A DNA stretch of 64,000 nucleotides, taken from positions 24,676,001 to 24,740,000 of the forward strand of contig NC_043003.1 in the NCBI RefSeq assembly GCF_006345805.1. The letters are read 5' to 3'. Source of the stretch: Octopus sinensis (Eukaryota). The position numbers were made by a program, and so were the translations under genes. This document shows, piece after piece, positions 4,616-56,425 of this stretch; the first letter of the stretch is position 1; every line of letters begins with the position of its first letter. Below the pieces are notes generated by a model, which searched no databases, was not told the DNA's origin, and saw only the letters and a program-made list of their open reading frames with translations.

Positions 4616-5649
4616 AGTTTACTGTTTTAAGGTAGGATCAGTATAAAAAGTATTCCATCCAGCAAGATATATATATATAATGTTCTTCATGGAGAACAGA
4701 TGTCTCAGACATTTTCACTTCATAATGGAATGCATCTCCTTCAAACTCCTCAGAAACACTTTCAACTTAACAGTGCCAGAACATGAAGTGTGTCATAGCA
4801 AGGAGAAGTTGCTTAAAAATGTACATTATCATCATCATAAACATCAATAAGATCACTGCTTCTGATGAAAGATTTTTGACAAACCAATTTATAAATTTAT
4901 TTATCTTTTTATATATTTATTAACAAATTATCTAATTAATTGAAGCGAAATACTACTAGTGTGTGCATTTTAATTGGCAGCTTGTTTAGTGGGGTTTTTT
5001 GGGGGGAGGAGCGAGGTTTCAGAAAATTATTGTGTCTTGTTTTTAATTTACAAGTAAAAGCTTCAAAACCTATTTTGCAAAGCAATTGGGAAGAATGTAA
5101 AGGTGCATGGCCTTGTAGTTAGGGTGCTGGGCTCATAATCACAAGGTTGTATGTTCACTTCCTGGGCAGGGCGTTCAGGTGTATCCTTGGACATGGTACA
5201 TTGTTTCATGTTTCCTCAGTCTACGCAGCTGTAAATGTATACCAGTCTAATTTTAGTGCAGCCTCTCTCTCTCTCTCTCTCTCTCTCCCCGTCCCCCTCT
5301 CTCTCTCTCTTCAGTTGTCGCATTTTCAATGTTGTATTGGATCATAGGTGGCAAAGCTAAGAGGGAACCTGTGTCTAATTGTGACTACACAAATACCTAA
5401 AACAATGAGTGAAAGCATGGTACAAGTTACCAGATCATACTTGCTTACAGGTGATGGTTAAGCTATACAGCATGGGTGCAAGCATGGCTATGTGATTAAG
5501 ACGTTTGCTTTGCAACCACAGGGTCTCCTGTTCAATCCCTCTGCACAGCACCTTGGCCAAATGTCACTACCATAACCTCAGATCACTTAAGACCATGTGA
5601 AATTTAGTGTACAGAAACCGTATGGAGGCCCATCAGAGGAACCATCTGA

Positions 5650-8612: not shown

Positions 8613-9411
8613 TTTTATATGTTTCAGTCATTTGACTGCAGCCACACTGGAGTACCTGTCTTAAAGGGTTTTCGTTGAAGAAATCGATTCCAGGACTTAT
8701 TCTTTGTAAGCCTAGTTCTTATTCTATCAGTCCCTTTTGCCGAATTACTAAGTTACAGGGACATAAACACACCAGCATTGGTTGTCAAATGATGACGAGA
8801 GAACAAACACACATACGCACACATAAAAATATATATCATGACTGCCACTTTCGGCCATTTACAGACACCATCAGTATGTATGTATATATTTATTTTCCTT
8901 TTTGATGACGCATTTGAAACAGCTGCCTAATTTACATATATATATATATATATACATATTTACACACACACACTCAATGGGCTATAGTAGAAGACACTGG
9001 CCCAAGGTGCTATGCAGTGAGACTCAACCTAGAAGTATATGATTGGGAATCAGGTTTCTTACCACACACCCACGCCTGCACTTAAATGTATATATGTATC
9101 ATCTAATGTCCATGTTCCATGCTGACATGGCTGGGATGGTTTGATGAGATCCAGTGGATCCAAGGACTACATTGTGTGTGTGTGTGTGTGCATGTGTGTA
9201 ACATATTTACTAGATTCATAAACAGTGCAAATTTAGCCATTTGTCTGCAGACTGAAAAAGTGATGGACCACCTTAATCCTTCTGTCAAAAGTAATGCTTA
9301 TTTATTCACATTGTTTTAAATTAGTTCTGCATTATCTTGGAGCTCTGAGATTTAGAATGACATTTTAGGGTTGGTTTGAGAGGCCAGATCTGGCAAGTTT
9401 GAACATAAATA

Positions 9412-9822
9412 GGCGCAGGAGTGGCTGTGTGGTAAGTAGCTTGCTTACCAACCACACGGTTCCGGGTTCAGTCCCACTGTGTGGCACCTTGGGAAAGTGT
9501 CTTCTTCTTTAGCCTCGGGCCAACCAACGCCTTGTGAGTGGATTTGGTAGACGGAAACTGAAAGAAGCCTGTCGTATATGTATATATATGTGTGTGTTTG
9601 TGTGTATATGTTTGTGTGTCTGTGTTTGTCACCCCCAACATCGCTTGACAACCGATGCTGGTAGATTTACGTCACCGTTACTTAGCGGTTCGGCAAAAGA
9701 GACCGATAGAATAAGTACTAGGCTTACAAAGAATAAGTCCTGGGGTCGATTTGCTCGACTAAAAGGTGGTGCTCCAGTATGGCCGCAGTCAAATGACTGA
9801 AACAAGTAAAAGAGTAAAGAGA
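9412..9822 (+). mobile_element. tRNA-derived SINE family A (CORE-like), full copy inserted in a piggyBac-like MITE (~9272-9873)
   Basis: A box gtggctgtgtggtaag, B box ggttcagtccc, CORE-like ggcaccttgggaaagtgtctt, central (TA/TG)n and an agtaaaaga tail. Confidence 0.88.
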
Positions 9823-11402: not shown

Positions 11403-11795
11403 CATCATCATCGTTTAACGTCCGTTCTCCATGCTAGCATGGGTTGGACGGTTCGACCGGGGTTCTGGGAAGCCAGAAGGCTGCACCAGGCTCCAGTCTT
11501 ATCTGGCAATGTTTCTACAGCTGGATGCCCTTCCTAACGCCAACCACTCCGTGAGTGTAGTGGGTGCTTTTTACATGCCACCTGCACAGGTGCCAGGCGA
11601 GGCTGGCAACGGCCACGGTCGGATTGGTGTATTTTATGTGCCACCGGCACGGAAGCCAGTCGAGGCAGCGCTGGCATCAGCCACGAGTCGGATAGTACTT
11701 TTTACGTACCACCAGACCAGGGATCCTGGCTGGTTCAATTCGATTTCGATTTCGCTTGCCCCAACATGTCTTCGCAAGCAAAGGGGGTTGGCATG
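11403..11795 (-). mobile_element. RTE 3'UTR carrying a single partial copy of the 159-bp unit amplified at 16065-17303
   Basis: Reverse complement of ~17190-17587. Confidence 0.85.
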
Positions 11796-15923: not shown

Positions 15924-17587
15924 TTCTGTACGTGAGAAGACCAGGCAATTCTGTACGTGAGAAGACCAGGCAGGACAAGTGAGCCCAGCCCACTTATGAA
16001 TGCCTTTCCTCCCTTGGACACAAAGACCGGCTGAGGCAAGCGAAGTCGATATAGAACCTCATCCGACGACAGACACCCATGCCAACCCCCCATGCTTGCG
16101 AAGACATGTTGGGGCAAACGAAACGAAATCGAAATCGAATTGAACCAGCCAGGATCCCTGGCCTGGTGGTACGTAAAAAGCACCATCCGACTCGTGGCCG
16201 TGGCACGTAAAATACTCCAATGCGACCGTACGACAGGCACCCATGCCAACCTCCTTTGCTTGTGAAGACATGTTGGGGCAAGCGAAATCGAATTGAACCA
16301 GCCAGGATCCCTGGTCTGGTGGTACGTAAAAAGCACTATCCGACTCGTGGCCGTGGCACGTAAAATACTCCAATGCGACCGTACGACAGGCACCCTTGCC
16401 AACCCCCTTTGCTTGTGAAGACATGTTGGGGCAAACGAAATCGAAATCGAATTGAACCAGCCAGGATCCCTGGTCTGGTGGTACGTAAAAAGCACTATCC
16501 GACTCGTGGCCGTGGCACGTAAAATACTCCAATGCGACCGTACGACAGGCACCCTTGCCAACCCCCTTTGCTTGTGAAGACATGTTGGGGCAACGAAATC
16601 GAAATCGAATTGAACAGCCAGGATCCCTGGTCTGGTGGTACGTAAAAAGCACTATCCGACTCGTGGCCGTGGCACGTAAAATACTCCAATGCGACCGTAC
16701 GACAGGCACCCTTGCCAACCCCCTTTGCTTGTGAAGACATGTTGGGGCAAACGAAATCGAAATCGAATTGAACCAGCCAGGATCCCTGGTCTGGTGGTAC
16801 GTAAAAAGCACTATCGACTCGTGGCCGTGGCACGTAAAATACTCCAATGCGACCGTACGACAGGCACCCTTGCCAACCCCCTTTGCTTGTGAAGACATGT
16901 TGGGGCAAACGAAATCGAAATCGAATTGAACCAGCCAGGATCCCTGGTCTGGTGGTACGTAAAAAGCACTATCCGACTCGTGGCCGTGGCACGTAAAATA
17001 CTCCAATGCGACCGTACGACAGGCACCCTTGCCAACCCCCTTTGCTTGTGAAGACATGTTGGGGCAAACGAAATCGAAATCGAATTGAACCAGCCAGGAT
17101 CCCTGGTCTGGTGGTACGTAAAAAGCACTATCCGACTCGTGGCCGTGGCACGTAAAATACTCCAATGCGACCGTACGACAGGCACCCTTGCCAACCCCCT
17201 TTGCTTGTGAAGACATGTTGGGGCAAACGAAATCGAAATCGAATTGAACCAGCCAGGATCCCTGGTCTGGTGGTACGTAAAAAGCACTATCCGACTCGTG
17301 GCCGATGCCAGCACCGCCTCGACTGGCTTCCGTGCCGGTGGCACATAAAATACACCAATCTGACCGTGGCCGTTGCCAGCCCCGCCTGGCACCTGTGCAG
17401 GTGGCACGTAAAAGCACCCACTACACTCACGGAGTGGTTGGCGTTAGGAAGGGCATCCAGCTGTAGAACATTGCCAAATTAGACTGGAGCCTGGTGCAGC
17501 CTTCTGGCTTCCCAGAACCCCGGTCGAACCGTCCAACCCATGCTAGCATGGAGAACGGACGTTAAACGACGATGATGATGATGATGA
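15924..17587 (+). mobile_element. 5'-truncated RTE insertion (last ORF2 codons, expanded 3'UTR, GAT tail) inside the (TA)n of a family-A SINE
   Basis: Start homologous to 1526-1660; ~26-bp duplication at the 5' junction; SINE halves on both sides (15689-15905 and 17600-17705). Confidence 0.85.
16065..17303 (+). repeat. Tandem array, 159-bp unit, about 8 copies
   Basis: ggggcaa(a)cgaaatcgaa recurs near 16114, 16277, 16431, 16590, 16747, 16905, 17064 and 17223; distal copies are essentially identical. Confidence 0.95.
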
Positions 17588-28044: not shown

Positions 28045-29396
28045 TTAAAACAATCTCCTCCTCTGTTTTGATCGTGTAAATTTCTCAATGTGTACCATCT
28101 CACCTTCAAGTGGAGCAACTTTGGGAGTTAACAAGGTGGATTTTTTTCACCCTCATCATCATCATTTAACATCCGCTTTTCCATGCTGGCATGAGTTGGA
28201 TGGTTTTACAGGAGCTGGCAAGCAGAAGAGCTGCCCCAGGTTCCATTTGTGTGTTTCAGCATGGTTTCTACAGCTTGATGCCCTTCCTAATGTCAGCCAC
28301 TTTACACAGTGTACTAGGTGCTTCTTATGTGAACCCCAGCACAGGTATTCTTTATCCGGTACCATCATATTAATGTTCTATGTAAAAGATAGAGTTCAGG
28401 TTCGAATCTTGTTGAAACTAAGTGTTGACTGGACATTACAAAATGATGTATAAACAGCCATTTGACTTGCTAGAAGTAGCAACTAAATCTCCCTCTGATT
28501 ATGCTCCACCATCATATACAAAGAAAAAGAGACATTAGACTAAGTAGTTTCAGTTTTTGATGATTAAAAAAAAAAACAAAAAAAAAACAGAATGATCTTG
28601 TTGGAATGGTTTTGGTCATAGATCTACTCAATCAGAGCTAACCCAGGGCTAAACAGCAACAAAATTGACTGAGGATTTTGTCATATATGTGGTAATAGGG
28701 ATGTTTCTGTCATAAACTGTTTCATATTTGATATATTTTGATATATAGATCATTACTCAAAACTTTCGCATTCATGTCAGGCATTAAAAGCAAATAAGCC
28801 TTATTGAGGGGATCTATTGCCAAGTTAAACCCCATCACAAGATTTCAGTCTAAGATTACTTTTTTTTCTTTTTATTCCAGTCATTGGAATACAGCCAATA
28901 CTTACTTTTAGTCTGCTACTTATTCTGTCAGACTCTTTCTTTGCCAAATTACGAGGATGTAAACAAATTTATACTGGTTGTAGAGCAGTGACACTCACAA
29001 ACACACGTGTGGGAACACGCACATATATAATGGGCTTCTTCACAGTTTCCATCTACCAAATTGACTCACAAGTTATTAGTCAGTTCAGGACCATAACTGA
29101 AGAAAATTGCCCAAAGTACCATTCAATGAGATTGAACTTGAGATCATATGGTTTGAAGTTCTTAACTCCAACTATACCTGCTCATATACTCTTTTACTCT
29201 TTTAATTTGTTTGTCATTGTGGCCATGCTAGAGCACCACCTTTAGTTGAAGAAATTGACTCCAGGATTCATTCTTTGTAAGCGTAGTACTTATTCTATCG
29301 GTCTCTTTTGCCGAACTGCTAAGTTACAGGATCTAAACACACCAGTATCAGTTGTCAAGCGATGGTGAGGGGACGAAAACAGACACACAAACACAA

Positions 29397-29431
<35 letters not shown>

Positions 29432-30889
29432 CGCAATGGGCTTCTTTCTGTTTCCGTCTACCAAATCCACTCACAAGGTTTTGGTTGACCTCAGGCTAGA
29501 GTAGAAGACACTTGCCGAAGGTGCCATGCAGTGGGACTGAATCTGGAACCATGCGGTTGGTAAGCAAGCTACTTATCACCAATACTTATTGTTTTTACTC
29601 ACTGAGCCTAGAGAAAGGGGCAGTGCATATGGCTTTTCAGGTCCTCAGAGATCAGTAAGACTGATGTCATTTATGTTCTTCTTGAGCCTTTGTAAGTCAA
29701 TACCTGCAGGAAAAACGTGAACAGGAACTGAATTTCTGGAGATCAACATTCTGAGATGGAAAGATAGTGCATATTAATTAGGGCTTTGCACGATTAGACA
29801 CATCAAAGGTAATGAATGGAATGAAATGAGTGGAAGTGGCATGGGCCCAGCCAACTCTGAGGAGTAGAGGTCATAATAGTAGCGATAGAAGACACAGAGG
29901 GAGGAGCGAGGGAGCTCACCCGTAGGCCAGTGGTAGGAGCATTTCTATTAGTAATTTAATGCCAATCAGTCAGGTTACCCTTTTTTATTTTGCAAATTAA
30001 TGAAAATTATTTTCTTTGAAATTAAGTCCTAATTTCTTAAAAACGTTTTCCTTTTCATTGTGAGTCATTAACAATTATCACCAAATATTTCTCTCTTTCT
30101 TTTTCGCCTCTCTCTTTTTCTTCTTTCTCCCATCCCCTCTCTTCTTTTTCCTCTCCTCTTCTCTGTTTCTCTCTCCACCTAAAAGACAGATTTCAATTAA
30201 GAAATTTTTGTGTACATTATTTAGAACATCACCATAATCCTAAATTAACAAAAAATAAAGTCAACCATACATCTCCTCATATAATCTGATTTCAATTAGG
30301 ATTCATACGTCTCTTTGGTACATACAGGCAGCCATGTGGCCCAAGCAATTGATAATTTAAATTTTATTTCCTAAAGACACATTCACTCTACTTAAAAACT
30401 AAATGGCAAAATCGGTGCTAGCATACTTAATGGTGTAATCCAAGAAATTTCAATAATTAGAATTGAACCTGTAAGGAGAAAAACTCACTAAAGTCTGTTT
30501 TGAGCCCCCTTCAGGCCCATTAAGCCAGAGCTTATCAAGGTTTCATGGCATCAAAGTTATTGAGACTACAAGGCTCTGCACACCTACACACATACCTAAA
30601 TAAAGCACCAGTTCATTGGGGCTTGTATTTGTTCAAGGCGCTTGTACTTGTTTTAATCTGAGTGAAATGAAGTGCCTCGCTCAAAAGCTACAGTGCACAG
30701 CCCAGTCCAAGAATCTCACTCACAAGCTAATGATTATAAGCCCAATGCCAAAGCCAATGTGACACACTCTTCATTAGTTCGAGTTTGAAGGACTTTTGTG
30801 AAATATTACCTTGCTTGGAAACAGGTGTGGGGCGGGGGTCACTCCCCTGGTTGGAAACCACCGATGTAAATGGACAGACAAGCATCATA

Positions 30890-31643
30890 TCTCATAGCTT
30901 TGAGATTTCAATGATGTAATTGTTTATTTTTAAAATAACATTGCATAGGAGTGGCCGTGTGGTAAGTAGCTTGCTTACCAACCACATGGTTCAGGGTTCA
31001 GTCCCAGTACGTGGCACCTAGGGCAAGTGTCTTCTACTATAGCCTCAGGCCGACAAAAACCTTGTGAGTGGATTTGGTAGACAGAAACTGAAAGAAGCCT
31101 GTCGTATATATGTATACATATATATATATATGTATGTGTTTACATATGTTTGTGTGTCTGTGTTTGTCCCCCAACATCGCTTGACAACCGATGCTGGTGT
31201 GTTTACGTCCCCGTAACTTAGCGGTTCGGCAAAAAAAAGACCGATAGACTAAGTACTAGGCTTACAAAGAATAAGTCCTGGGGTCGATTTGCTCGACTAA
31301 AGGCGGTGCTCCAGCATGGCCGCAGTCAAATGACTGAAACAAGTAAAAGAGTAGAGTAGGTGTGAGAGGCCAAATCTGGTCAGTTTGAAGATAAAACAGG
31401 TAGATTATTTTGGCCAATTTAAATGCTAAAGGGTTAAACCAGCCATATCCAGCCCAAATTTTCTACCTGTTTTATGTTCAAAACAGCCAGGTCTGGCCTT
31501 TCACATCTATTCTACAGTGTGATTCTAAAAATTAACAATCACATCATTGAGACCTCAAAACTATAAGATGGTGCATGACTAATTCAAAAAGTGGGAATAA
31601 ATGAGGATTACATTTGACAGAAATCTGAATGCTTAAGGATTAA
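30890..31643. mobile_element. Two oppositely oriented copies of a second piggyBac-like MITE, the first interrupted by SINE A
   Basis: ...aaacaggtagattattttggcc...aatgctaaagggTTAA followed by ...attttctacctgttttatgttcaaa; homologous to 9272-9873. Confidence 0.65.
30943..31357 (+). mobile_element. SINE family A full copy; other + copies ~12096-12345, 14505-15055, 34070-34490, 44958-45345, 56284-56660
   Basis: Near-identical to 9412-9822. Confidence 0.88.
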
Positions 31644-34972: not shown

Positions 34973-35174
34973 AATAAGATTATAATTTTTCGGACTGTTG
35001 AACTCGTCTTTAAAGATGAAACATTTTAATATTTACGGCCACGCTACGTTTCGATCGGTTTGATTTCCTGATGACAGAGATCAGACCGATCGAAACTTAG
35101 GGCAGAATGTAAATATTAAAAATCATTTCATCTCCAGAGATGAGGTTAATAGACCACAAATTTATAATCTTGTT
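34973..35174. repeat. ~200-bp imperfect hairpin
   Basis: aagattataa...agatgaaa...aatatttac...gtttcgatcggt is mirrored by accgatcgaaac...gtaaatatt...tttcatct...ttataatctt. Confidence 0.85.
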
Positions 35175-39934: not shown

Positions 39935-41598
39935 CCTTAGAGTATTATTTCTTAGAAACAAGGCACTAAACATTAATGGCTTTCTAGTGTATACATCCAG
40001 TTCATTTAATTTATTGTCTACTACAGATAGTCTTCACAGAGGGTGGGATGAGTTAACAGAAATGATGGATGACTTGACTGAATTTCTCTCAGTATCTGGT
40101 TGTTCTGATTCTGGATTTTTATTTTTTTTTATTTTATTACAATGCATTAATGCTTACTTTATCTGTTGCCTCTCATATCTCTTTGACATTGATAAATGAA
40201 CACCAGGCATGAACTGGGGTTTATCAAAAAATGCTGTACGCTTCCTTTACAAATTTCATGGAAGTGTTGGAGCTTGCAGAATTGTTAGCACATTAAACGA
40301 AATGCTTAGCAACATTTCATCCATCATTATGTTGTAGAAAGTTCATAAGTTCAAATTCTATCAGTCGACTTTGCTTTTCATCCTTTCAGGATTGATAAAG
40401 TAAGTACCAGTTGAGCACTGGGGTCCATGTAATCAACTAGCTTCCCTCCCCGCAAATTTCAGGCTTTGTGTCTGTAGCAGAAGGGATTATTGTTGTTGTT
40501 GCTGTTGTTATTGTTATTATTAAGATGGTGAACTGGCCGAATTGTTAGCTTACCTGACAAAATACTTAACCCTTTTGTTGCTATATTTCTGACCAAAATA
40601 CACCCCTCATGAGTTTCAATTAAATTCTAAAATAGTCATTAAACAACTGTAATTTGTTTTACTTATCAACATATTAATATGATATTTGGAACATAATTAA
40701 AGAAATGGTTCTTAATCAATTCTATTGCATAACTTTTATCTCAAAGTGACTTTAATTACAAGTAAATCCAGGTAAACTGAGCAAAAGGTAAAAATATTAA
40801 AATTTTGTTTAATGGCATCTCATCCCACTTTGTTCTGACTTCAAATTCCTCCAAGGCCAACATTGCCTTTCATCCTATTGGAATTGATTAAATAAGTACC
40901 AGTTGAGCACTGGGGTCAATGAAATTCACTAGCTCCCTCCCCAAAAATTACTGGTCATGTGCTTATAATAAAAAGAAATGATTATTGGATTTTTCATTGC
41001 AGTGTATTGTTGATGGTTAGTTTTCTGTTAATATAACCATATTGCAGGTGTTTTCTTTGTCAGCTGATTAAACACTGCTCTTGTTTGTAGTATAAGTTAT
41101 GTGACCATATAATTCTCAATAAAATCCTATAATTCTCCATAAAATCCTGTGAAAAATACACACAGGCAGTTAAGTACAATTATGGTTGTATGGATACAAG
41201 CTTCACTTTGTGGCCACAGGATCTCGAGTTCTATCTCACTGCCTGGTACTTTCAGCTAGAGTCCTCTAACATAACCATGGGCCATCTAATGCCTGGTGAG
41301 TGGAATTGATAGACAGAACTTGATAGAAGCCTCTTGAATGTATGTGTGTGTGGTGTATCTGTCTACCTGTATGTATGTATGTATTCTTTTATTTGTTTCA
41401 GTCATTTGACTGCAGCCATGCTAGAGCACCACCTTTAGTTGAACAAATCAACCCCAGGACTTATTCTTTGTAAACCTTGTACTTATTCTGTCAGTCTCTT
41501 TTGCTGAACCGCTAAGTTATGGGGGACATAAACACACCATCATCAGTTGTCAAGCAATGATGGTGGGGGGCAAACATTCACGTACACACACACACACG

Positions 41599-41648
<50 letters not shown>

Positions 41649-41799
41649 ACAGGCTTCTTTCAGTTTCTATCTACCAAATCCACTTGCAAGTCTTTGGTCG
41701 GCCCAAGGCTATAGTAGAAGACACTTGCCCAAGGTGGCACGCAGTGGGACTGAACCTGGAACCATGTGATTGGTGAGCAAGCTATTTACCACACAGCCA

Positions 41800-43004: not shown

Positions 43005-46000
43005 TATATACAGTGGTTTCAGTTTCAATCTACCAAATCCAGTCACAAGGCATTGATTGTCCTGAGGCTATAATAGAAGACACTTGCCCAAGGTTCCGCA
43101 AGGTGCAAAGAACCAGGAACAATATGGTTGGGAAGTAAACTTTTTACCACATAGTTATGCCTGCACCTGCCATGCCTGATCCTAAATGCATATTCCCATG
43201 TTGGGAATCAAACCAAACCACCCGGGTGAAATCCAAGAATCCTAACCACTCGGCCACTGACACACACACTCTCACTCACTTGCATGCACTCACTCATATG
43301 CATGCACTCATTCACTCGCATGCACACACTTGCACTCACTTGCACGCACATGCACACAATGGGCTTGTTTCAGTTTCCATCTATCAAATCCACTCCAAAG
43401 TCTCTGGTTACCCTTGGGCAATAGTAGAAGACACCCAGGATGCCACGTAGTGAGACCGAACCTGAAACAACATGGTTGAGAAGCAAGCTTCTTAACCATG
43501 CAGCCACAATACTGACAGAAATGATGCTGCAAGACAAGATTACATGCCTTTGCTTTTTTGTCCATCTACTCTCTGGATTGAAATCCAGCCAGGGTTAACT
43601 TCTTTTTCTTTCATTTATTCAATTAATGAAATAACATTAAAAAAAAAATAGTGATAGGCAGTTGCGATGGTGGGGAAGTGTTAATCAAATTAACTTGAGT
43701 CTTTTCATGAATATTAGTGAATATTGGCCTGTGTAACTTCAAAAGAATCAGTGTGCGTCTCAGTCCACTGGTCCACTGTATGTTCATTTATTTGTAAAAT
43801 ATTCTTTCATATTGTATTGATTGTGACATATACTGTAATGCTGCTTTTATTGCCATTGTGTCAATTAAAGAAAATATAGTTGTTGATATTACTGTTATAA
43901 ATCTCATTGGAGTCGAAGCGATATTAATTAATTCAGTCATCTCAGGTCTTTTATTTTTCTTTTGGTTCTCTCTGTCTCTCTCCTTCCTTCCTCTCTCTGT
44001 CTCTCTCTCTCTATCTCTTGTTCTATCATTATCAATTTAGAAATATATTGACGAGAACTAAAAGTTTCACATAATTTTGGAAAACAATTTCTATATAATT
44101 TGTTGAATTGATTTTAATTTATTCAAGTTTATTTTATCAATTTATTTTATTTATTTATTTATTTATTTATTTATTAAATGAACTGTCCTGAGACAGACGA
44201 AAAAATGTAACATTTTTTTTTTTGTTTGTTCATATAAATGTCAAATGTTCTATATCAAAATATATTTGGAAATATGAACAGATCAAATTTTGCTCTTGTT
44301 ATTCCCACTGACAGTGATAGTATCATTGCAATTGCCTTATCCAGATATTCCCGTTTAGATGATATAGAGGCCCCTTTTGGTCATGAATGACTGTGGGATT
44401 GCACCTAGAAAATGACCCTCTTAGGCACAAGTCCGAGCAAGGTTGTTTATGGAAGACCAGCAGTCGCCCATGCATACCAGCTGCCCCTCTCCACACCACC
44501 AATGCTATCTAAGAGAAAGGCAAAGGTCTTATACAGCTTGGCACCATTGATGTCACAACTCATTTCTACAGCTGAGTGAACTGGAGCAACATGAAATAAA
44601 GTACCTTGCTCAAGAACACAACACACAGCCCAGTCTGAGAATCGAACTCATTACCTCAATGCTCTAACCACTGAGCCATGCACCTTCACAAATGACATAA
44701 TAATGTTTTTAATGAGAGTTCTTAGATATGGTTGCTCTATCTATATTGTGTACTTGATGTCCAGAGAAGGGGAAGATGTTTGAAATAATCATTATCAGTA
44801 GCAGCAGCAGTATTTCAGCATCTACTTTTCCATGCTTGCATGGATTAGTTGAGACTGCATTGGATCAGGGTTTTCTATGGATGGATGCCCTTCCTGATGC
44901 CAACCTTCACTTGTTTCCAAACTAAGTAATAATATCCCCCAACTGTTGAAATATGAACAGGTGTGGCTGTGTGGTAAGAAGCTTGTTTCCCAATCACATG
45001 GTTCCAGGTCCAGTCCCACTGCATGGCACCTTGGGTAAGTGTCTTTTACTATAGCCTTGGGCTGACCAAAGCCTTGTGGGTAGATTTGGTAAACAGAAAC
45101 TGAAAGAAGCCTGTTGTGTGAGTGTGTTGTGTTATGTGTGTGTGTGTGTGTCTGTGTTTGTCCCCCTATCACCACTTGACAACTGGTGTTGGTGTGTTTA
45201 CGTCCCCATAACTTAGCAGTTTGGTAAAAAAAAGATCAATAGCTTAAGAAATAAGTCCTGGGGTTGATTTGTTCAACTAAAACCCTTCAAGGCAGTGCTC
45301 CAGCATGGCCACAGTCTAATGATTGAAACCAGTAAAAGAATAAAAAAAACCCAGACATGTTTAAACAGGGAACCGGAAACAAATGATGTTGTCTAATTGA
45401 GCATTCTGCTTAGCCTTTCCAAAGACCACACAACATCTCAAAAAGCCTAGTTTGCTTTGACAGTGGACTGCAAGCAAATGACATCACAGTCTATATAAAC
45501 TGAGATATTTTTGATTACAATCAGTGAACACACACGAAGGCAAGAGAAAATGCAAACTCATTCACTTAAACTCACACAGAACACACACATACACACACAC
45601 GCATACAGGACTTCTTCCGTTTCTATCTGCAAACCTTTACTCACTCATAAGATATTAGCTGACCTGCAGTTATAGTACAGTTATAGCACAGCTGACAGAA
45701 TCCATGCAGTAGGACTGACACCCTAACTGTGTGGTTCCAAAAAGAAAGTCAATAAGAGATTCTTAAATGAATGCTGACCACTCTCTCCCACCTCCTTTTT
45801 TTTTTCAACTTAACCATTAACAGAGACATGTGTGATGTGTTGTTCTTTACTTTTGCTTTTGATCTGGAGCAGCTTAAGTCCTGTTCTACTCAAGCAGACT
45901 GTGAATCCAGAAGTTGCTAACTAAAACAAACACTGAAGCAGCACTTCTAGTTGTGGCTCTTTGATTCTTATTGTGGACATATCTTAAGAATTAGCAATTA

Positions 46001-47755: not shown

Positions 47756-47845
47756 GCCACTAAAGTTGCTAGCACTGCAGCCAAACGAACCAAGGAACTT
47801 AGTTTAACTGTCAATGAATCTGTTATCAAACCTACACGAGATAAG
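47756..47845 (+). CDS. ARFGAP1: Internal coding exon of an ArfGAP1-like gene (region between the ALPS motifs)
   Basis: Strong acceptor tctttcttctattttgtag| and donor AAG|gtaaga; 90 nt, open, phase 0/0. Translation ATKVASTAAKRTKELSLTVNESVIKPTRDK resembles vertebrate ArfGAP1 ATKFGSQASQKASELGHSLNENVLKPAQEK (recalled from memory, not searched). No other ArfGAP1 exon was recognised in the window. Confidence 0.82.
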
Positions 47846-48321
47846 GTAAGATTTGCCATCTGAGTTTTCTGAGTTTTATTGCATCTTTATGCATATTTTA
47901 CATTTGTATATTTGTGCATGCATGTGTGCATATTTATGTTTTTATATAGTTGCACTGGTGCAGTTGCATGTCTGTTTTGCATTGCAGAGAACTTGAGAAC
48001 TTCACTTGCATTGTCTTGTTTTAAGTTTTATGCCTATTTCTACAGTGTGTGTGTGTATATGCACACTTACACACATATACACAAACATGTGTATGTGTAT
48101 AGATGTATATATACTAATGTATGTATACATACATATGTGTGTGGTGTGTATGCATGTATATATATATATATACACATATGTATATGTGTGTATGTATATA
48201 TATATTCTATATATATATATAATTTGCACAACAAATATTTAAAACGTACTAACAAATATATATATATATTATATATATAATATATATATATATATATTAT
48301 ATATATTTATTATATAGAAGG

Positions 48322-48371
48322 AGCTTCTACAGGACTAGTACTGTTTCATTCAAGAGAATCTTCAGGAAGCT
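48322..48371 (-). ncRNA. Type I hammerhead ribozyme motif (Penelope-like-element type), core intact
   Basis: Minus strand reads AGCUUC-CUGAAGA-UUCUCUUGAAU-GAAA-CAG UACUAGUC CUGU-A-GAAGCU. 6-bp stem I, CUGANGA and GAAA cores, short stem II, stem III ACAG/CUGU within a near-palindrome, GUA cleavage triplet. Confidence 0.8.
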
Positions 48372-48684
48372 ATTTAAACCAGAATTGTATTAGCATTTAT
48401 ACATTTAGGCATGTTTTAAAGGAGTGGTGGTGGGGGACTTTTTTGGGGGTAGGCATAGCGCAAATTATCATACTTGGGGGAGTGGTCAAGGAGTCAGAGG
48501 TAAGTTTAGGTGAAGAATAGATAAATAAAAAATAAAAAATAAAAAATAAAAAATAAAAAAAAAATAAATGTGTGCACATACATACATAAACCATATACAT
48601 ACACACACACATACGTACACATGTGTGCCTATACATACCTACACATACACGCATACACATACATACATATATATATATACACAC

Positions 48685-48715
<31 letters not shown>

Positions 48716-49077
48716 ATACTATATATAATATAATATACACAATCCAATACAGGCCCATTCCCTAATTTTAATTTTATTATCTTCATTTATTACTTTTGTT
48801 ATCTTTGATCGCTAGAGCTAAGGATCCTGGCGATGGCAGCATGTCCAAATTGTCTGTCTACTAGAAGGCAAGTACTCGTTCCCACACCACAACCACTCAT
48901 TAGCACGTACATACACCCATTCGTACACTCATACACATACACGTACGCACGCGTTATATTCATACATACAAAACATCTACATACGTTCACGTATATACAC
49001 ATACGTACTCATACCTACAGATTCATGTCTACACTTTAGGAGGCTAGTCTATATATATACACCAATAAATATACATA

Positions 49078-49109
<32 letters not shown>

Positions 49110-49236
49110 CCACATATAAACATACACACACACACACACATATATACTCCTACATACAGATACATACCTATATATATATATATATATATATATACCCACA
49201 CATACATGTACATATAATATATATACATATACATAC

Positions 49237-49267
<31 letters not shown>

Positions 49268-49499
49268 CACATATACATACATACATACACAACACCCCAT
49301 ATATATACACACACATCATACACATATATATACATACACAAACTATATACACACATATATATATATATTATATATACAATACACACATACATACACACAC
49401 CTACATACATATACACACAAACACATACATACGTAAACATACATACATACATCCATACATCCATACTTACATGCACTTATACGCATACACACACCCCCA

Positions 49500-49549
<50 letters not shown>

Positions 49550-50105
49550 CACACTCACACATACATATACAAATATACGCCCACACATACATACATACAT
49601 ACATACACGTATACGCATACACGCACATACACATATACATGCGTACCCATACACGTGCCCACACGCACATGCATCCATATGTATACACACACACACATAT
49701 ATACACGTGTGCAAGCATACATACATACTCATACACGCACACATACTTACATATACATATATGCACACACTTACACACATATATACATACACATTACATG
49801 CATACATACATATATGCATACTACAACATACACGCACATACACATATACACATGCGTACCCATACACGTGCACGCACGCACGCGCATCCATATATATACA
49901 CACGCCCACATATATAACACGTGTGCAAGCATACATACATACTTACACGCGCACATACTTACATATACATATATGCACACACACTTCCACACATATATAC
50001 ATACACATATACATGCATACATACATATATGCATACATACACACACGCGCACTCATATATACATTATATATACACCACATACACATATATACATATACAT
50101 ATATA

Positions 50106-50136
<31 letters not shown>

Positions 50137-50759
50137 ATATATTTTTATACACATATACACATACACATGTGTATAAAAATATATATATATATATATAATA
50201 TATATATGTATATGTATATATGTGTATGTGTGTGTATATATATTGTATATATGAGTGCGCGTGTGTGTATGTATGCATATATGTATGTATGCATGTATAT
50301 GTGTATGTATATGTGTGGAAGTGTGTGCATATATGTATATGTAAGTATGTGCGCGTGTATGAGTATGTATGTATGCTTGCACACGGTATATATATGTGTG
50401 CGTGTGTATATATATGGATGCGCGTGCGTGCGTGCACGTGTATGGGTACGCATGTGTATATGTGTATGTGCGTGTATGTGTATGTATGCATATATGTATG
50501 TATGCATGTATATGTGTATGTATATATGTGTGTAAGTGTGTGCATATATGTATATGTAAGTATGTGTGCTGTATGAGTATTATGTATGCTTGCACACGTG
50601 TATATATGTGTGTGTGTGTATACATTGGATGCATGTGCGTGTGGGCACGTGTTGGCGCATGTATGTATGGGTACGCATGTATATGTGATGTGCGTGTATG
50701 CGTATACGTGTATGTATGTATGTATGTGTGGGCGTACATTTGTATATGTATGTGTGAGT

Positions 50760-50801
<42 letters not shown>

Positions 50802-51037
50802 ATATATATAGATGGGGGTGTGTGTATGCGTATAAGTGCATGTAAGTATGGATGTATGGATGTATGTATGTATGTTTACGTATGTATGTGTTTGTGTGTA
50901 TATGTATGTAGGTGTGTGTATGTATGTGTGTATATATATATATATTATGTGTGTATATATGTTTGTGTATGTATATATATGTGTATGTATGTGTGTGTAT
51001 ATATATGGGTGTGTGTGTATGTATGTATGTATATGTG

Positions 51038-51068
<31 letters not shown>

Positions 51069-51922
51069 GTATGTATATGTATATATATATATGTACATGT
51101 ATGTGTGGGTATATATATATATATATATATTATATAGGTATGTATCTGTATGTAGGAGTATATATGTGTGTGTGTTGGTGTATGTGTATATGTGTAATAT
51201 ATATATGTATATATATATATATATATGTATATTTATTGGTGTATATATATAGACTAGCCTCCTAATTGTAGACATGAATCTGTAGGTATGAGTACGTATG
51301 TGTATATACGTGAACGTATGTAGATGTTTGTATGTATGAATATAACGCGTGCGTACGTGTATGTGTATGAGTGTACGAATGGGTGTATGTACGTGCTAAT
51401 GAGTGTGCGTGTGGGAACGAGTACTTGCCTTCTAGTAGACAGACAATTTGGACATGCTGCCATCGCCAGGATCCTTAGCTCTAGCGATCAAAGATAACAA
51501 AGTAATAATGAAGATAATAAAATTAAATTAGGAATGGGCCTGTATTGGATTGTGTATATATATTATATATATGTAATATATATATTATATATATTATTAT
51601 ATATATGGTTATATATATATATGATGTATGTGTATGCGTGTATGTGTAGGTATGTATAGGCCCACATGTACGTATGTGTGTGTGTATGTATATGTGTTTA
51701 TGTATGTATGTGCCACATTTATTTTTTTTATTTTTTTTATTTTTAATTTTTTTTTTTATTTTTTATTTTTTTTTTATCTATTCTTTCACCTAACTTACCT
51801 CTGACTCCTTGACCACTCCCCAAGTATGATAATTTGCGCTATGCCTACCCCCAAAAAAGTCCCCCACCACCACTCCTTTAAACTGCCTAAATGTATAAAT
51901 GCTAATACAATTCTTGTTAAAT

Positions 51923-51972
51923 AGCTCCTGAAGATTTCTCTTGAATGAAACAGTACTAGTCCTGTAGAAGCT
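51923..51972 (+). ncRNA. Type I hammerhead ribozyme motif, mirror copy at the right end of the palindrome
   Basis: agctc-ctgaaga-tttctcttgaat-gaaa-cagtactagtcctgt-a-gaagct. Differs from the left copy only by single-T indels. Predicted cleavage 3' of A51966. Confidence 0.78.
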
Positions 51973-52053
51973 CCTTCTATATATAAATTAATTTATACTG
52001 GTATGTATTGAGTACCTTACTTACTGTGGTTAACCCCGGATCAACCCGGGACC

Positions 52054-52094
<41 letters not shown>

Positions 52095-53574: not shown

Positions 53575-54005
53575 TTACTCTTTACTCTCTCTCTTTTACT
53601 TGTTTCAGTCATTTGACTGCAGCCATGCTGGAGCACTGCCTTTAGTCGACTAAAGGACTAATCGACTCCAGGACTAATTCTTTGTAAGCCTAGTACTTAT
53701 TCTATTGGTCCCTTTTGCCGAACTGCTAAGTTACGGGGACATAAACACACCAGCATTGGTTGTCAAGCAATGTTGTGGGGGCACAAACACAGACACACAA
53801 ATATATACACACACATACATATATATATATACACATATATACAATGGGCTTCTTTCAGTTTCCGTCTACCAAATCCACTCACAAGGCTTTGGTCGGCCCG
53901 AGGCTATAGTAGAAGACACTTGCCCAAGGTGCCATGCAGTGGGACTGAACCCGGAACCATGTGGTTGGTAAGCAAGCTATTTACCACGCAGCCACTCTTG
54001 CGCCT
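53575..54005 (-). mobile_element. SINE family A full copy, minus; other - copies ~8610-9080, 13219-13580, 15689-17705 (split), 19677-20035, 29190-29580, 36530-36853, 41385-41800
   Basis: Reverse complement of the 9412-9822 sequence. Confidence 0.88.
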
Positions 54006-56425
54006 GTTCAGAAGGTAGTGAAGAACTGGGGTCATTGTAATCAACCAGCCCCCTCCCCCAAAATATCAGGCCTTGTCCCTATAGTAGAATGAATTGTTAT
54101 TAAGGTGACAAGCTGGATAAAATGCTTGGTGGCATTTCATCCATCTTTACATTCTGAGTTCCAATGCCACTAAGGTCAACTTTGCCTTTCATCCCTTCAG
54201 GATCAATAAAATAAAGTACCTTCTGAACACTGAGGTCAATGTAATTGACTCCACCTCCTCTTAAAATTTTAAGCCTTGTGCCTGTAGCAGAAAGGATTAT
54301 TATTATTATTATTATGATTATCATCATCATCATCATCATCATTATCAAGCAAGTGACTTACCCCTCCCCAAAATTGCTAGCCCCGTGCCAAAACTTGGAA
54401 CCATTATTATGATTATTATTGTTATTGTTATTGTTGTTGTTGTTGTTAAGGTGGTGAGCTGGTAGAACCATTAGCATGCTGGGAAAAAATGCTTAGTGGC
54501 ATTTCATCCATCTTTACCTTCTGTGTTCAAATTCCACCAAGGTCAACTTTGCCTTTCATCCTTTTGGAGTTGATAAATAAAGTACCAGTCAAGCACTGAA
54601 GTCAATGTAATTGGCTAGCCATCCCCCGCAAATTTCGGGACTTGTGTCTAAAGTAGAGAGAATCAATAATATTTATATGCCATCTTGTTGTTTTTGTACG
54701 TCCATACCTGTGGTGTGTGTCACACTTACCTCAAAGGAAGAAGTGAGTGGCAGAGCAGGAGAGAGGAGGACAGAGAGGAAGTGAGAATGAGAGAGACAGT
54801 GAGTGGTGACGGCGTTCATTTTGTGTTTTTAAACATTTATCACATCACAAGATAAGTAGATACGTAGATGCATACACACATTGTTAAATTAAAAGCGGAA
54901 GAGAAGAGGGACGCAGAGGAAGTGAGAGAGAAAGTAGATACATAGATCGAAAGAAAGTTGATACATAGATACATTGTTAAATCAAAGACAACTACAGCAA
55001 ATATTGGATGTCACTTTCACTTTTCATTACCACCCAAGGATAAAATTAACTCGTAAGTGGCTGAGTACTCCACAGGCATGCATACTATTAATGTAGTTCT
55101 CAGGGAGATTCAGCCTCATACAGAATATGACAAGGCTGGCCCCTTTAAATTACAGCTTCAACTCATTTTGGCCAGCTGAGTGGACTGGAGCAAGATAAAC
55201 CTTCAAGTGATTGGAAGAGATCCTATATAGGGGCAGGAAAATCTTTTTAGTTGTTAGCGTCACTGTAGGTGTTAATCTGGTCCTAACAGCAGCATTTGTG
55301 GGTCTCACAGATCTGGAGGCCAAGCCCCCAAATAAACACCAATGCACAGGCTGTTGTTATCAAACTGAGCATGAGTCGAGGGCGAATACACAACGGAATA
55401 GCAATTATTTCCATCTTAGCTTTCACTGCTTATACTAAACACCTAAACAAATGACATTTTTGCCTTATATGGATCATTTCCTTTTCTTTCACTCTTTATA
55501 AATAATGGCACTCTGTCAGTTACGATGATGAGGTTCCTGTTTATCTGATCAACAGAACAGTCTGCTTGTAAAATTAATGTGCAAGTGGCTGAGTACTCCA
55601 CAGACATGCATACCATAAGGTAATTCTCTGGGGGATTCAACCTCACTCAGAATGTGACAAGGCTGGCCCCTTTGAATTACAGCTACAGCTCAAGAACACA
55701 GCGCACCACAGGGAATCGTACTCATGACTTTACGATCATGGACTGAATAGCCCTAACCACTGAGCCACACACCTTCACTCTCTTAACCATAGTGAAGCAA
55801 TAGAAACAGAGAAAGGAAAGCCTCAGTCATTTACAATGAAAATTAGACTGAAATACTATCGATCTTTTCCAGCTTCTTTGCTTTTAACAATGAAGAAGAG
55901 GGAAAGACATTTAGTAATGAATAAAAGGAAAGTCTTTCAGGTGTCTACGCTTTTATTTTGGAAGTTCTAGAACGATTGAATGTTAGTTCTCTCTTCTTTC
56001 CTCCCACCCCCGATACTTATTCGCCTTCTTTCATAGTTCTTCATGTCTTTTAGTTGGGGGGGGGGAAAGACCATGTTTTTTTTTCAGGCACGTTTAACAT
56101 TTTCTCTACAAACAAGCTCAGCTCCCTTCCTTTTTTTTTTTCATACAAAAACTAATGCAAGTTTCGAATGGGGTATAACTGTGAAAAGAGCCCAGAAAAA
56201 TGGGTAATAACCCCTACAAAACAGGTGGGGGAGGAAAGTTTGCCAACAGGTGGCTACACGAAATTCAACTCTATACTTCAAAGAGTGTCTTCTACTATAA
56301 TCTTGGGCCAACTAAAGCCTTGTGAGTGAATTTGGTAGACAGAAACTGAAAGAAGCCCATCATATATCATCATCATCATCATCATTTAGCGTCCGCTTTC
56401 CATGCTAGCATGGGTTGGACCTATG

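Follow-up and report, generated by a model that had tools for sequence, protein, structure and literature searches.

A palindrome in an intron of Octopus sinensis is probably a pair of head-to-head, 5'-truncated 3' ends of a Hydra-type Penelope-like retrotransposon

Hydra-clade Penelope-like elements (PLEs) are characterized, in passages of PMC8557442, by RW[KR] and DKT motifs, a CxCX5C linker, CxxC and CxH motifs, a (TA)n target and a canonical hammerhead, a length below 3 kb being typical of the clade rather than strict. Inverted, 5'-truncated PLE insertions with head-to-head arms, a palindromic junction and a one-sided tail have been described (passages of PMC3846280; Fig. 2 legend of PMC8557442). 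In vitro, the Poseidon element of Anolis nicks and extends both strands, with two start sites that bound a tail, and its hammerhead mutants insert normally, cleavage not being required (passages of PMC11167929). The steps leading to inverted insertions were left unresolved by Craig et al. 2021 (PMC8557442) and Frangieh et al. 2024 (PMC11167929), as far as the passages considered here go, and those of PMC11167929 contain no model of such insertions. Retrozymes, as non-autonomous derivatives of PLEs, are a different case (passages of bioRxiv 10.64898/2026.07.22.740005).

The locus studied here lies in the window, that is, the whole stretch of 64,000 nucleotides of Octopus sinensis DNA that was analysed. 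An internal coding exon of a host ArfGAP1-like gene is found at 47756-47845 on the plus strand, encoding amino acids 219 to 248 of P0125 (31 of 31 amino acids identical), an Octopus sinensis protein that its source calls ArfGAP1-like. The next matched exon is located ~64 kb on, at C7:24,787,512, and the insertion begins 460 bp past the donor site of the former, in this ~64-kb intron. It occupies 48305-52060, tail included, between a (TA)n target tract at 48157-48304, the same target as at other ends of the family, and another at 52061-52092; no target-site duplication was readable within this right-hand repeat. The left arm (48305-50154, minus strand) and the right arm (50167-51989, plus strand), both 5'-truncated 3' untranslated regions (UTRs) of the element and near-equal in length, meet head to head (5'-5') at a 12-nt loop (50155-50166), which closes a 29-bp stem without mismatch at the centre. 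In the assembly, the inverted arms align over 1,899 columns (1,775 matches, 22 mismatches and 102 gap columns), with a similarity of ~93%. The left arm ends at a tail-less terminus, 23 nt beyond the predicted cleavage site of its hammerhead, and the right arm is followed by a one-sided tail (51990-52060, plus strand; 73 nt in the family) that fills the interval between the two fixed termini. The outer flanks of the palindrome are not mirrored.

A preliminary description of this DNA had reported inverted arms with a 12-nt spacer, outward-facing hammerheads at both outer ends and no reverse transcriptase (RT) open reading frame (ORF) in the arms, all of which was confirmed in the assembly, the hammerheads as sequence motifs. 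It had also set the limits at 48306-51987, between unrelated flanks; this requires correction, since 51990-52060 is the conserved tail of the element. We consider it highly probable that the palindrome consists of two 5'-truncated 3' ends of a Hydra-type PLE lying head to head in (TA)n, which likely derive from one insertion; the suggested Penelope link and 5'-joined inversion are supported. Besides the palindrome, no further copies of the family were found in the window. For their part, repeats of ~200-225 bp, 82-96% alike and in both orientations, are dispersed through the window (9408-9629, 11569-11793, 17189-17413, 29379-29579, 30949-31167, 41584-41799, 44958-45161 and 53783-54008) and are probably SINE-like.

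The arms are element sequence. The ~300-bp segment considered unique in the preliminary description (48740-49060, minus strand, mirrored in the right arm) is non-repetitive 3' UTR of the element and not host DNA: it gave 1,182 first-look search candidates in the genome, and the best 41 matches listed were 97-100% identical. A 221-bp probe from the palindrome end gave 1,404 candidates, the best 39 other matches listed being 95-96% identical, and the middle and the start of the element ORF gave 206 and 62, respectively. These figures are first-look candidates and not copy numbers; their decrease towards the 5' end (1,404, 1,182, 206 and 62) describes a 5'-truncation gradient, also seen within the ORF in the contigs of four of four public runs. 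Many other loci match the full length of the window arm, longer copies extend 5' into an ORF, and the 3' UTR of these coding copies is collinear with the window arms. Truncation points differ locus by locus, with arms ranging across pairs from <100 nt to about 6 kb.

Full-length units between two hammerheads measured 4,604-6,209 nt (10 units), of which the 3' UTR takes 2.7-3.5 kb, 57-75% of it short tandem repeat (three copies measured). Among lineages such as L061, L084 and L088 the ORFs are >90% alike, the microsatellite UTRs align at 70-75%, and UTR lengths differ by >1 kb.

The ORF of the L084 copy (P0003) spans 679 amino acids, with a change of reading frame near the C terminus. P0003 and P0001 together contain YRDD, WYNPP, a CxCX5C linker (CNCHDKTTC), a GIY-YIG-like stretch whose GIY and YIG halves have only one C between them, CxxC (CDLC) and CxH (CMH); the canonical CCHH is absent. 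At residue 38, RWR stands in place of RWK and was counted as that motif. DKT (in SDKTKN) is present in L062, L077 and L081, and P0003 reads DKR ahead of a lysine run. Thus, a single ORF combines RT with a C-terminal GIY-YIG endonuclease, as in endonuclease-bearing (EN+) PLEs, the window copy being devoid of this ORF; 5' truncation, an inverted 5' copy and a one-sided tail are likewise EN+ features found here. Searches of Pfam and PDB sequences with the ORF gave no significant match; its relatives carry PF01541. At E<=1e-10, 1,694 of 8,000 scored proteins matched the ORF, mostly of ~700 amino acids, and among the matches listed identities were 39-52% and nearly all were unnamed. Other Penelope-type ORF fragments, 30-55% identical, adjoin or intersperse family copies at L065, L070, L072 and L052.

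By these motifs, compared by eye, the element classifies as an endonuclease-bearing Hydra-type PLE. In common with the Hydra clade, including Hydra-1_Obim of Octopus bimaculoides, as presented in passages of PMC8557442, it has RW[KR], DKT, CxCX5C, the C-terminal CxxC and CxH and the GIY-YIG-like domain, together with a hammerhead near the 3' end and a (TA)n target, into which the family is inserted; the RT motifs also match those of the Hydra-1_Obim protein by eye (passages of PMC8557442). However, the clade is generally <3 kb, with 2,507 bp for Hydra-1_Obim (passages of PMC8557442), whereas the ten O. sinensis units are longer (4.6-6.2 kb), the extra length coming from the repeat-rich 3' UTR. 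The family further differs from Hydra-1_Obim in its hammerhead, in a clear partial-tandem pseudo-LTR and in RWR instead of RWK (passages of PMC8557442). This hammerhead-bearing pseudo-LTR is evident from L061, where a short repeat containing a hammerhead and the tail lies upstream and leads into the ATG; across 96 loci plus the window, 21 of the 176 hammerhead ends likewise continue into the ORF start.

Several loci showed more complex arrangements. At L096:4224-6677 (C9:87,420,000-87,422,700), about six 420-nt units are arranged in tandem and inverted, each joining a hammerhead and tail to the initial ~150 nt of the ORF; the array, which is tailed at one end and tail-less at the other, resembles a retrozyme in the making. 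The same nested cluster, with five hammerhead ends, occurs at both L042 and L045, once on a small contig and once on C14, and is likely present twice because the assembly contains a haplotype duplicate; this cluster and L035 suggest that copies have nested by inserting into TA tracts of the element itself. Inverted, staggered 3.4-kb repeats, 99.5% identical, lie beside a family copy at L030:445-8436 and are not element arms.

Both outer ends of the window palindrome carry a type I-like hammerhead motif, at 48322-48371 on the minus strand (pattern match 48328-48365) and at 51923-51972 on the plus strand (pattern match 51928-51966), with a predicted cut after 51966 in the latter. In this motif, stem I has 6 bp, stem II is weak, and stem III has 4 bp and a palindromic loop; the core reads CUGAAGA and GAAA and the cleavage triplet is GUA, in agreement with the CUGANGA and GAAA core, NUH triplet and three stems of type I. 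The left motif has one T fewer than the usual family form, and the right one lacks a T in stem I, possibly a consensus error. An Rfam scan gave no hammerhead at E<=1, only microsatellite matches under gathering scores, and fold stability showed no excess over shuffles (z of -0.17, 1.21 and -0.55), so the ribozyme call is based on the core letters and the three stems. A loose pattern matched five times in the window, against 0.22 expected by chance, with three matches at the two palindrome sites; the others, at 35068-35111 (plus strand) and 5190-5219 (minus strand), are unrelated to the family. The strict pattern matched 136 of the 176 family ends. In 36 of these 136 one letter of loop III is changed, marking a second subfamily; the change breaks one of two overlapping palindromes and leaves a shorter one intact.

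As in the PLE hammerheads of Cervera and de la Pena 2014 (passages of PMC4209133), the motifs are of type I, lie in a terminal repeat, have a palindromic loop III and occur in opposite-strand pairs. The minimal motifs in those passages of PMC4209133 have a long stem II and no stem III, whereas the O. sinensis family has a 4-bp stem III and a 3-bp stem II closed by U-U.

The ends of the element occupy two fixed positions. Measured from one anchor, the tail-less ends clustered at +13 (53 of 77) and the tailed ends at +86 (69 of 72). These positions are 73 nt apart and lie 23 and 96 nt, respectively, past the site of predicted cleavage. Since both termini lie past the predicted cut, the ribozyme does not set the ends, and the template therefore carried an uncut hammerhead. 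Judged from sequence, the hammerheads would be passengers of the terminal repeat of the element rather than boundary setters. The tail between the two positions is conserved, and in full-length copies it continues into the 5' region of the ORF. Public contigs were in agreement: TA-rich loose ends appeared at the tailed site in four of four runs, and at the tail-less site exactly in three of four, the fourth being 2 nt off. At the tip of the tail, just before the tailed terminus, a GC-rich hairpin beside a short palindrome (52027-52050 in the window) is present at all tailed ends, a candidate protein-binding or start signal.

These positions bear on the proposal, made in the preliminary description, of a non-autonomous, ribozyme-delimited unit that copied host DNA into a fold-back; such a unit would be retrozyme-like. 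The arms do lack an ORF and the hammerheads do lie close to both ends, but the ends are displaced from the cut site by 23 and 96 nt, truncation points vary, and coding Hydra-type copies have a 3' UTR with which the arms are collinear, all of which makes this origin highly improbable. Likewise, the assignment to non-LTR retrozymes, which are short, hammerhead-bounded tandem units lacking any coding counterpart, was rejected, the arms being the UTR of coding copies and variable in length.

Other inverted duplications ending at this hammerhead, for which the preliminary description had advised a genome-wide search, were looked for in 96 loci, and 60 pairs were obtained with the window included. 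All outward-facing pairs had one tailed and one tail-less end, 62 of 62 in the whole set and 60 of 60 once the two pairs of L045, the duplicate of L042, were dropped. The first set had been chosen with a tail-less query, so that only the partner end was unselected; in the 32 pairs chosen on internal sequence, which are devoid of that bias, the proportion was 32 of 32. Among 20 loci chosen on the mid-UTR, 18 were paired, and no partner end was found within 10 kb at the other two. By comparison, passages of PMC3846280 and PMC8557442 call the tail "optional" or "often" present and give it 30-40 nt. This constant asymmetry also weighs on a foldback or MITE-type DNA transposon with the hammerhead in its long terminal inverted repeats by chance. 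Such an element would account for long inverted arms and a TA target, but hardly for arms of such different lengths, asymmetric ends, a copy number that drops towards the 5' end and coding copies that carry RT, and we find it scarcely credible; the symmetric fixed termini of that class were found in none of the 60 pairs.

Arm lengths were also informative. Near-equal arms, defined as within 5% or 30 nt, were found in 19 of the 60 pairs, whereas 20,000 shuffles averaged 2.15 and never exceeded 10, none reaching 19. By set, the proportions were 11/27, 7/18 and 0/14, plus the window, the last set having been chosen on the ORF, a choice that forces one long arm. The longer arm was tailed in 19 pairs and tail-less in 22; because of these 22, a single cDNA folding back from the tailed end is excluded. 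In the most unequal pair cited, L057, the arms measure 100 and 4,804 nt. Junction overlaps of 0-4 nt were observed in 30 of 60 pairs, with a noisy negative tail, and a base-level analysis of loop origin, also noisy, assigned about four loops to each arm among the pairs.

Partner arms are related to each other. The 32 of 60 pairs in which both arms cover the mid-UTR segment were compared over 510 columns, and the 36 substitutions seen exactly twice all fell in partner arms (36/36; 0.57 expected), divided 16 and 20 between the two arm-length classes. A further 26 substitutions were private to a single arm in these 32 loci and 510 columns. Arm-to-arm conversion or polishing could also explain the shared substitutions. 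In 57 of 60 pairs, three columns that mark subfamilies set apart 10 loci, always by both arms and never by one alone, and a fourth showed one exception. The nearest neighbour was the partner arm for just 43 of 70 arms, and the window arms ranked 11th and 5th of 34 as each other's partners; this test is confounded by copy accuracy, since error-rich copies lose to accurate ones.

The same data allow another history for the same element, in which snap-back makes every insertion a near-perfect palindrome at first, central deletions later render the arms unequal, and arm-to-arm gene conversion accounts for the shared variants. Central revision of long palindromes is known in mice, one third of the pairs are near-equal, and private substitutions are shared in both arm classes, all of which speak in its favour. 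Passages of PMC3846280 moreover put forward self-priming for the palindromic junctions of rotifer elements. On the other hand, up to 4.7 kb (L057) would have to be lost cleanly from one side, the one-sided tail would still call for a second primer, and the scarcity of one-arm substitutions indicates that the copies are young and have had little time to be revised. This history is a real alternative, one that we hold to be rather unlikely.

A long-read fold-back chimera or misassembly has also to be considered. The differences between the two window arms are mostly 1-nt indels, and the assembly is error-rich, as the frameshifts of the L061 copy are missing from public contigs. Against 12 related arms, the right arm showed 59 indel columns and the left arm 40, so that the errors are not confined to the right arm, where the preliminary description had seen them concentrated; indels in both arms would be as expected for an error-rich long-read consensus. 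(Substitution counts from the 12-arm comparison were inflated by misalignment within repeats, and the two-arm alignment was therefore used for those figures.) However, a fold-back would mirror one end together with its flank rather than give one tailed and one tail-less end, and here the tail is on just one side and the flanks are unmirrored. In addition, 59 other pairs share the layout and both termini are present in public contigs. The caveat of an artefact raised in the preliminary description is therefore very unlikely to apply. Among the entries listed for the public contigs over the L061 ORF, which are short and have a further 171 loose ends outside the listing, there was no strand-changing joint apart from one unclear entry, and the inverted junctions are thus known from the assembly.

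Returning to the origin of the window palindrome as a PLE insertion in (TA)n, the observations are consistent with a two-primer reaction. The element protein would nick both strands of a TA tract, and each nicked 3' end would prime reverse transcription on uncleaved element RNA, one primer starting at the tail-less site and the other at the tailed site. A premature stop of copying would give the 5' truncation. The cDNA end would then pair through 0-4 nt of microhomology, either with itself (snap-back), giving near-equal arms as in the window, or with the other cDNA, giving unequal arms, and fill-in would yield the inverted unit. We lean somewhat towards this step-by-step account, with its double nicking, two start sites and snap-back or cDNA pairing.

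The model has in common with LINE-1 twin priming that both target strands prime cDNA and that the junction involves microhomology. In LINE-1, the second primer starts inside the RNA, which results in inversion without duplication; in the O. sinensis pairs, unlike LINE-1, the element end is duplicated because both primers would start near the 3' end. With Poseidon (passages of PMC11167929) the family shares two tail-bounding start sites, an AT-rich target, the extension of both strands and the dispensability of hammerhead cleavage, although Poseidon belongs to another clade and its start sites lie within the ORF, whereas those of the O. sinensis family are upstream of the ATG. Start-site use in the Anolis system showed no difference between the strands (passages of PMC11167929), so that a strict pairing of one site per strand would go beyond the biochemical observations. 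The broader proposition that PLE integration is an obligate two-primer reaction, using each RNA start site once, on opposite target strands and from one RNA lineage, with about a third of the insertions closing by snap-back into kilobase palindromes and the family acting as a routine source of intronic long dsRNA and of its own (TA)n targets, stands in our judgement evenly poised.

Head-to-head arms, palindromic junctions, one-sided tails and opposite-strand hammerhead pairs are known already (passages of PMC3846280, PMC8557442 and PMC4209133). New within a known clade are the family, the 57-75% microsatellite content of its 3' UTR and the pair counts. An excess of equal arms and variants shared between arms are not reported in the passages of PMC3846280 and PMC8557442 considered, and a literature search, with Repbase and subscription journals outside its scope, found no paper on the O. 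sinensis family or on PLE twin priming; the supplements of PMC11167929, PMC3846280 and PMC4209133 may hold similar counts. Taken alone, the locus is an ordinary insertion from a retrotransposon class already known, and the main value lies in the family-wide counts. Both the rule of one tail per pair and the excess of equal arms are open to testing in vitro, and, if the two-primer reading is true, the hitherto unresolved second-strand step could be read from genomes by counting such features.

With regard to the host, the ArfGAP1 pre-mRNA would hold both arms and fold into a 1.8-kb duplex, with the right hammerhead in sense orientation. The predicted pairing energy of the arm ends is -136.7 kcal/mol, versus -4.9 for the hammerhead fold; the duplex is thus predicted to bury the sense hammerhead, and self-cleavage in the pre-mRNA is unlikely, as arm-end pairing far outweighs the hammerhead fold. 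The dsRNA with a self-cleaved 3' end foreseen in the preliminary description is accordingly improbable. Octopuses belong to an animal group known for heavy RNA editing. If units of this family are transcribed in introns, each would give a kilobase-long duplex, a likely substrate for RNA-editing or small-RNA pathways.
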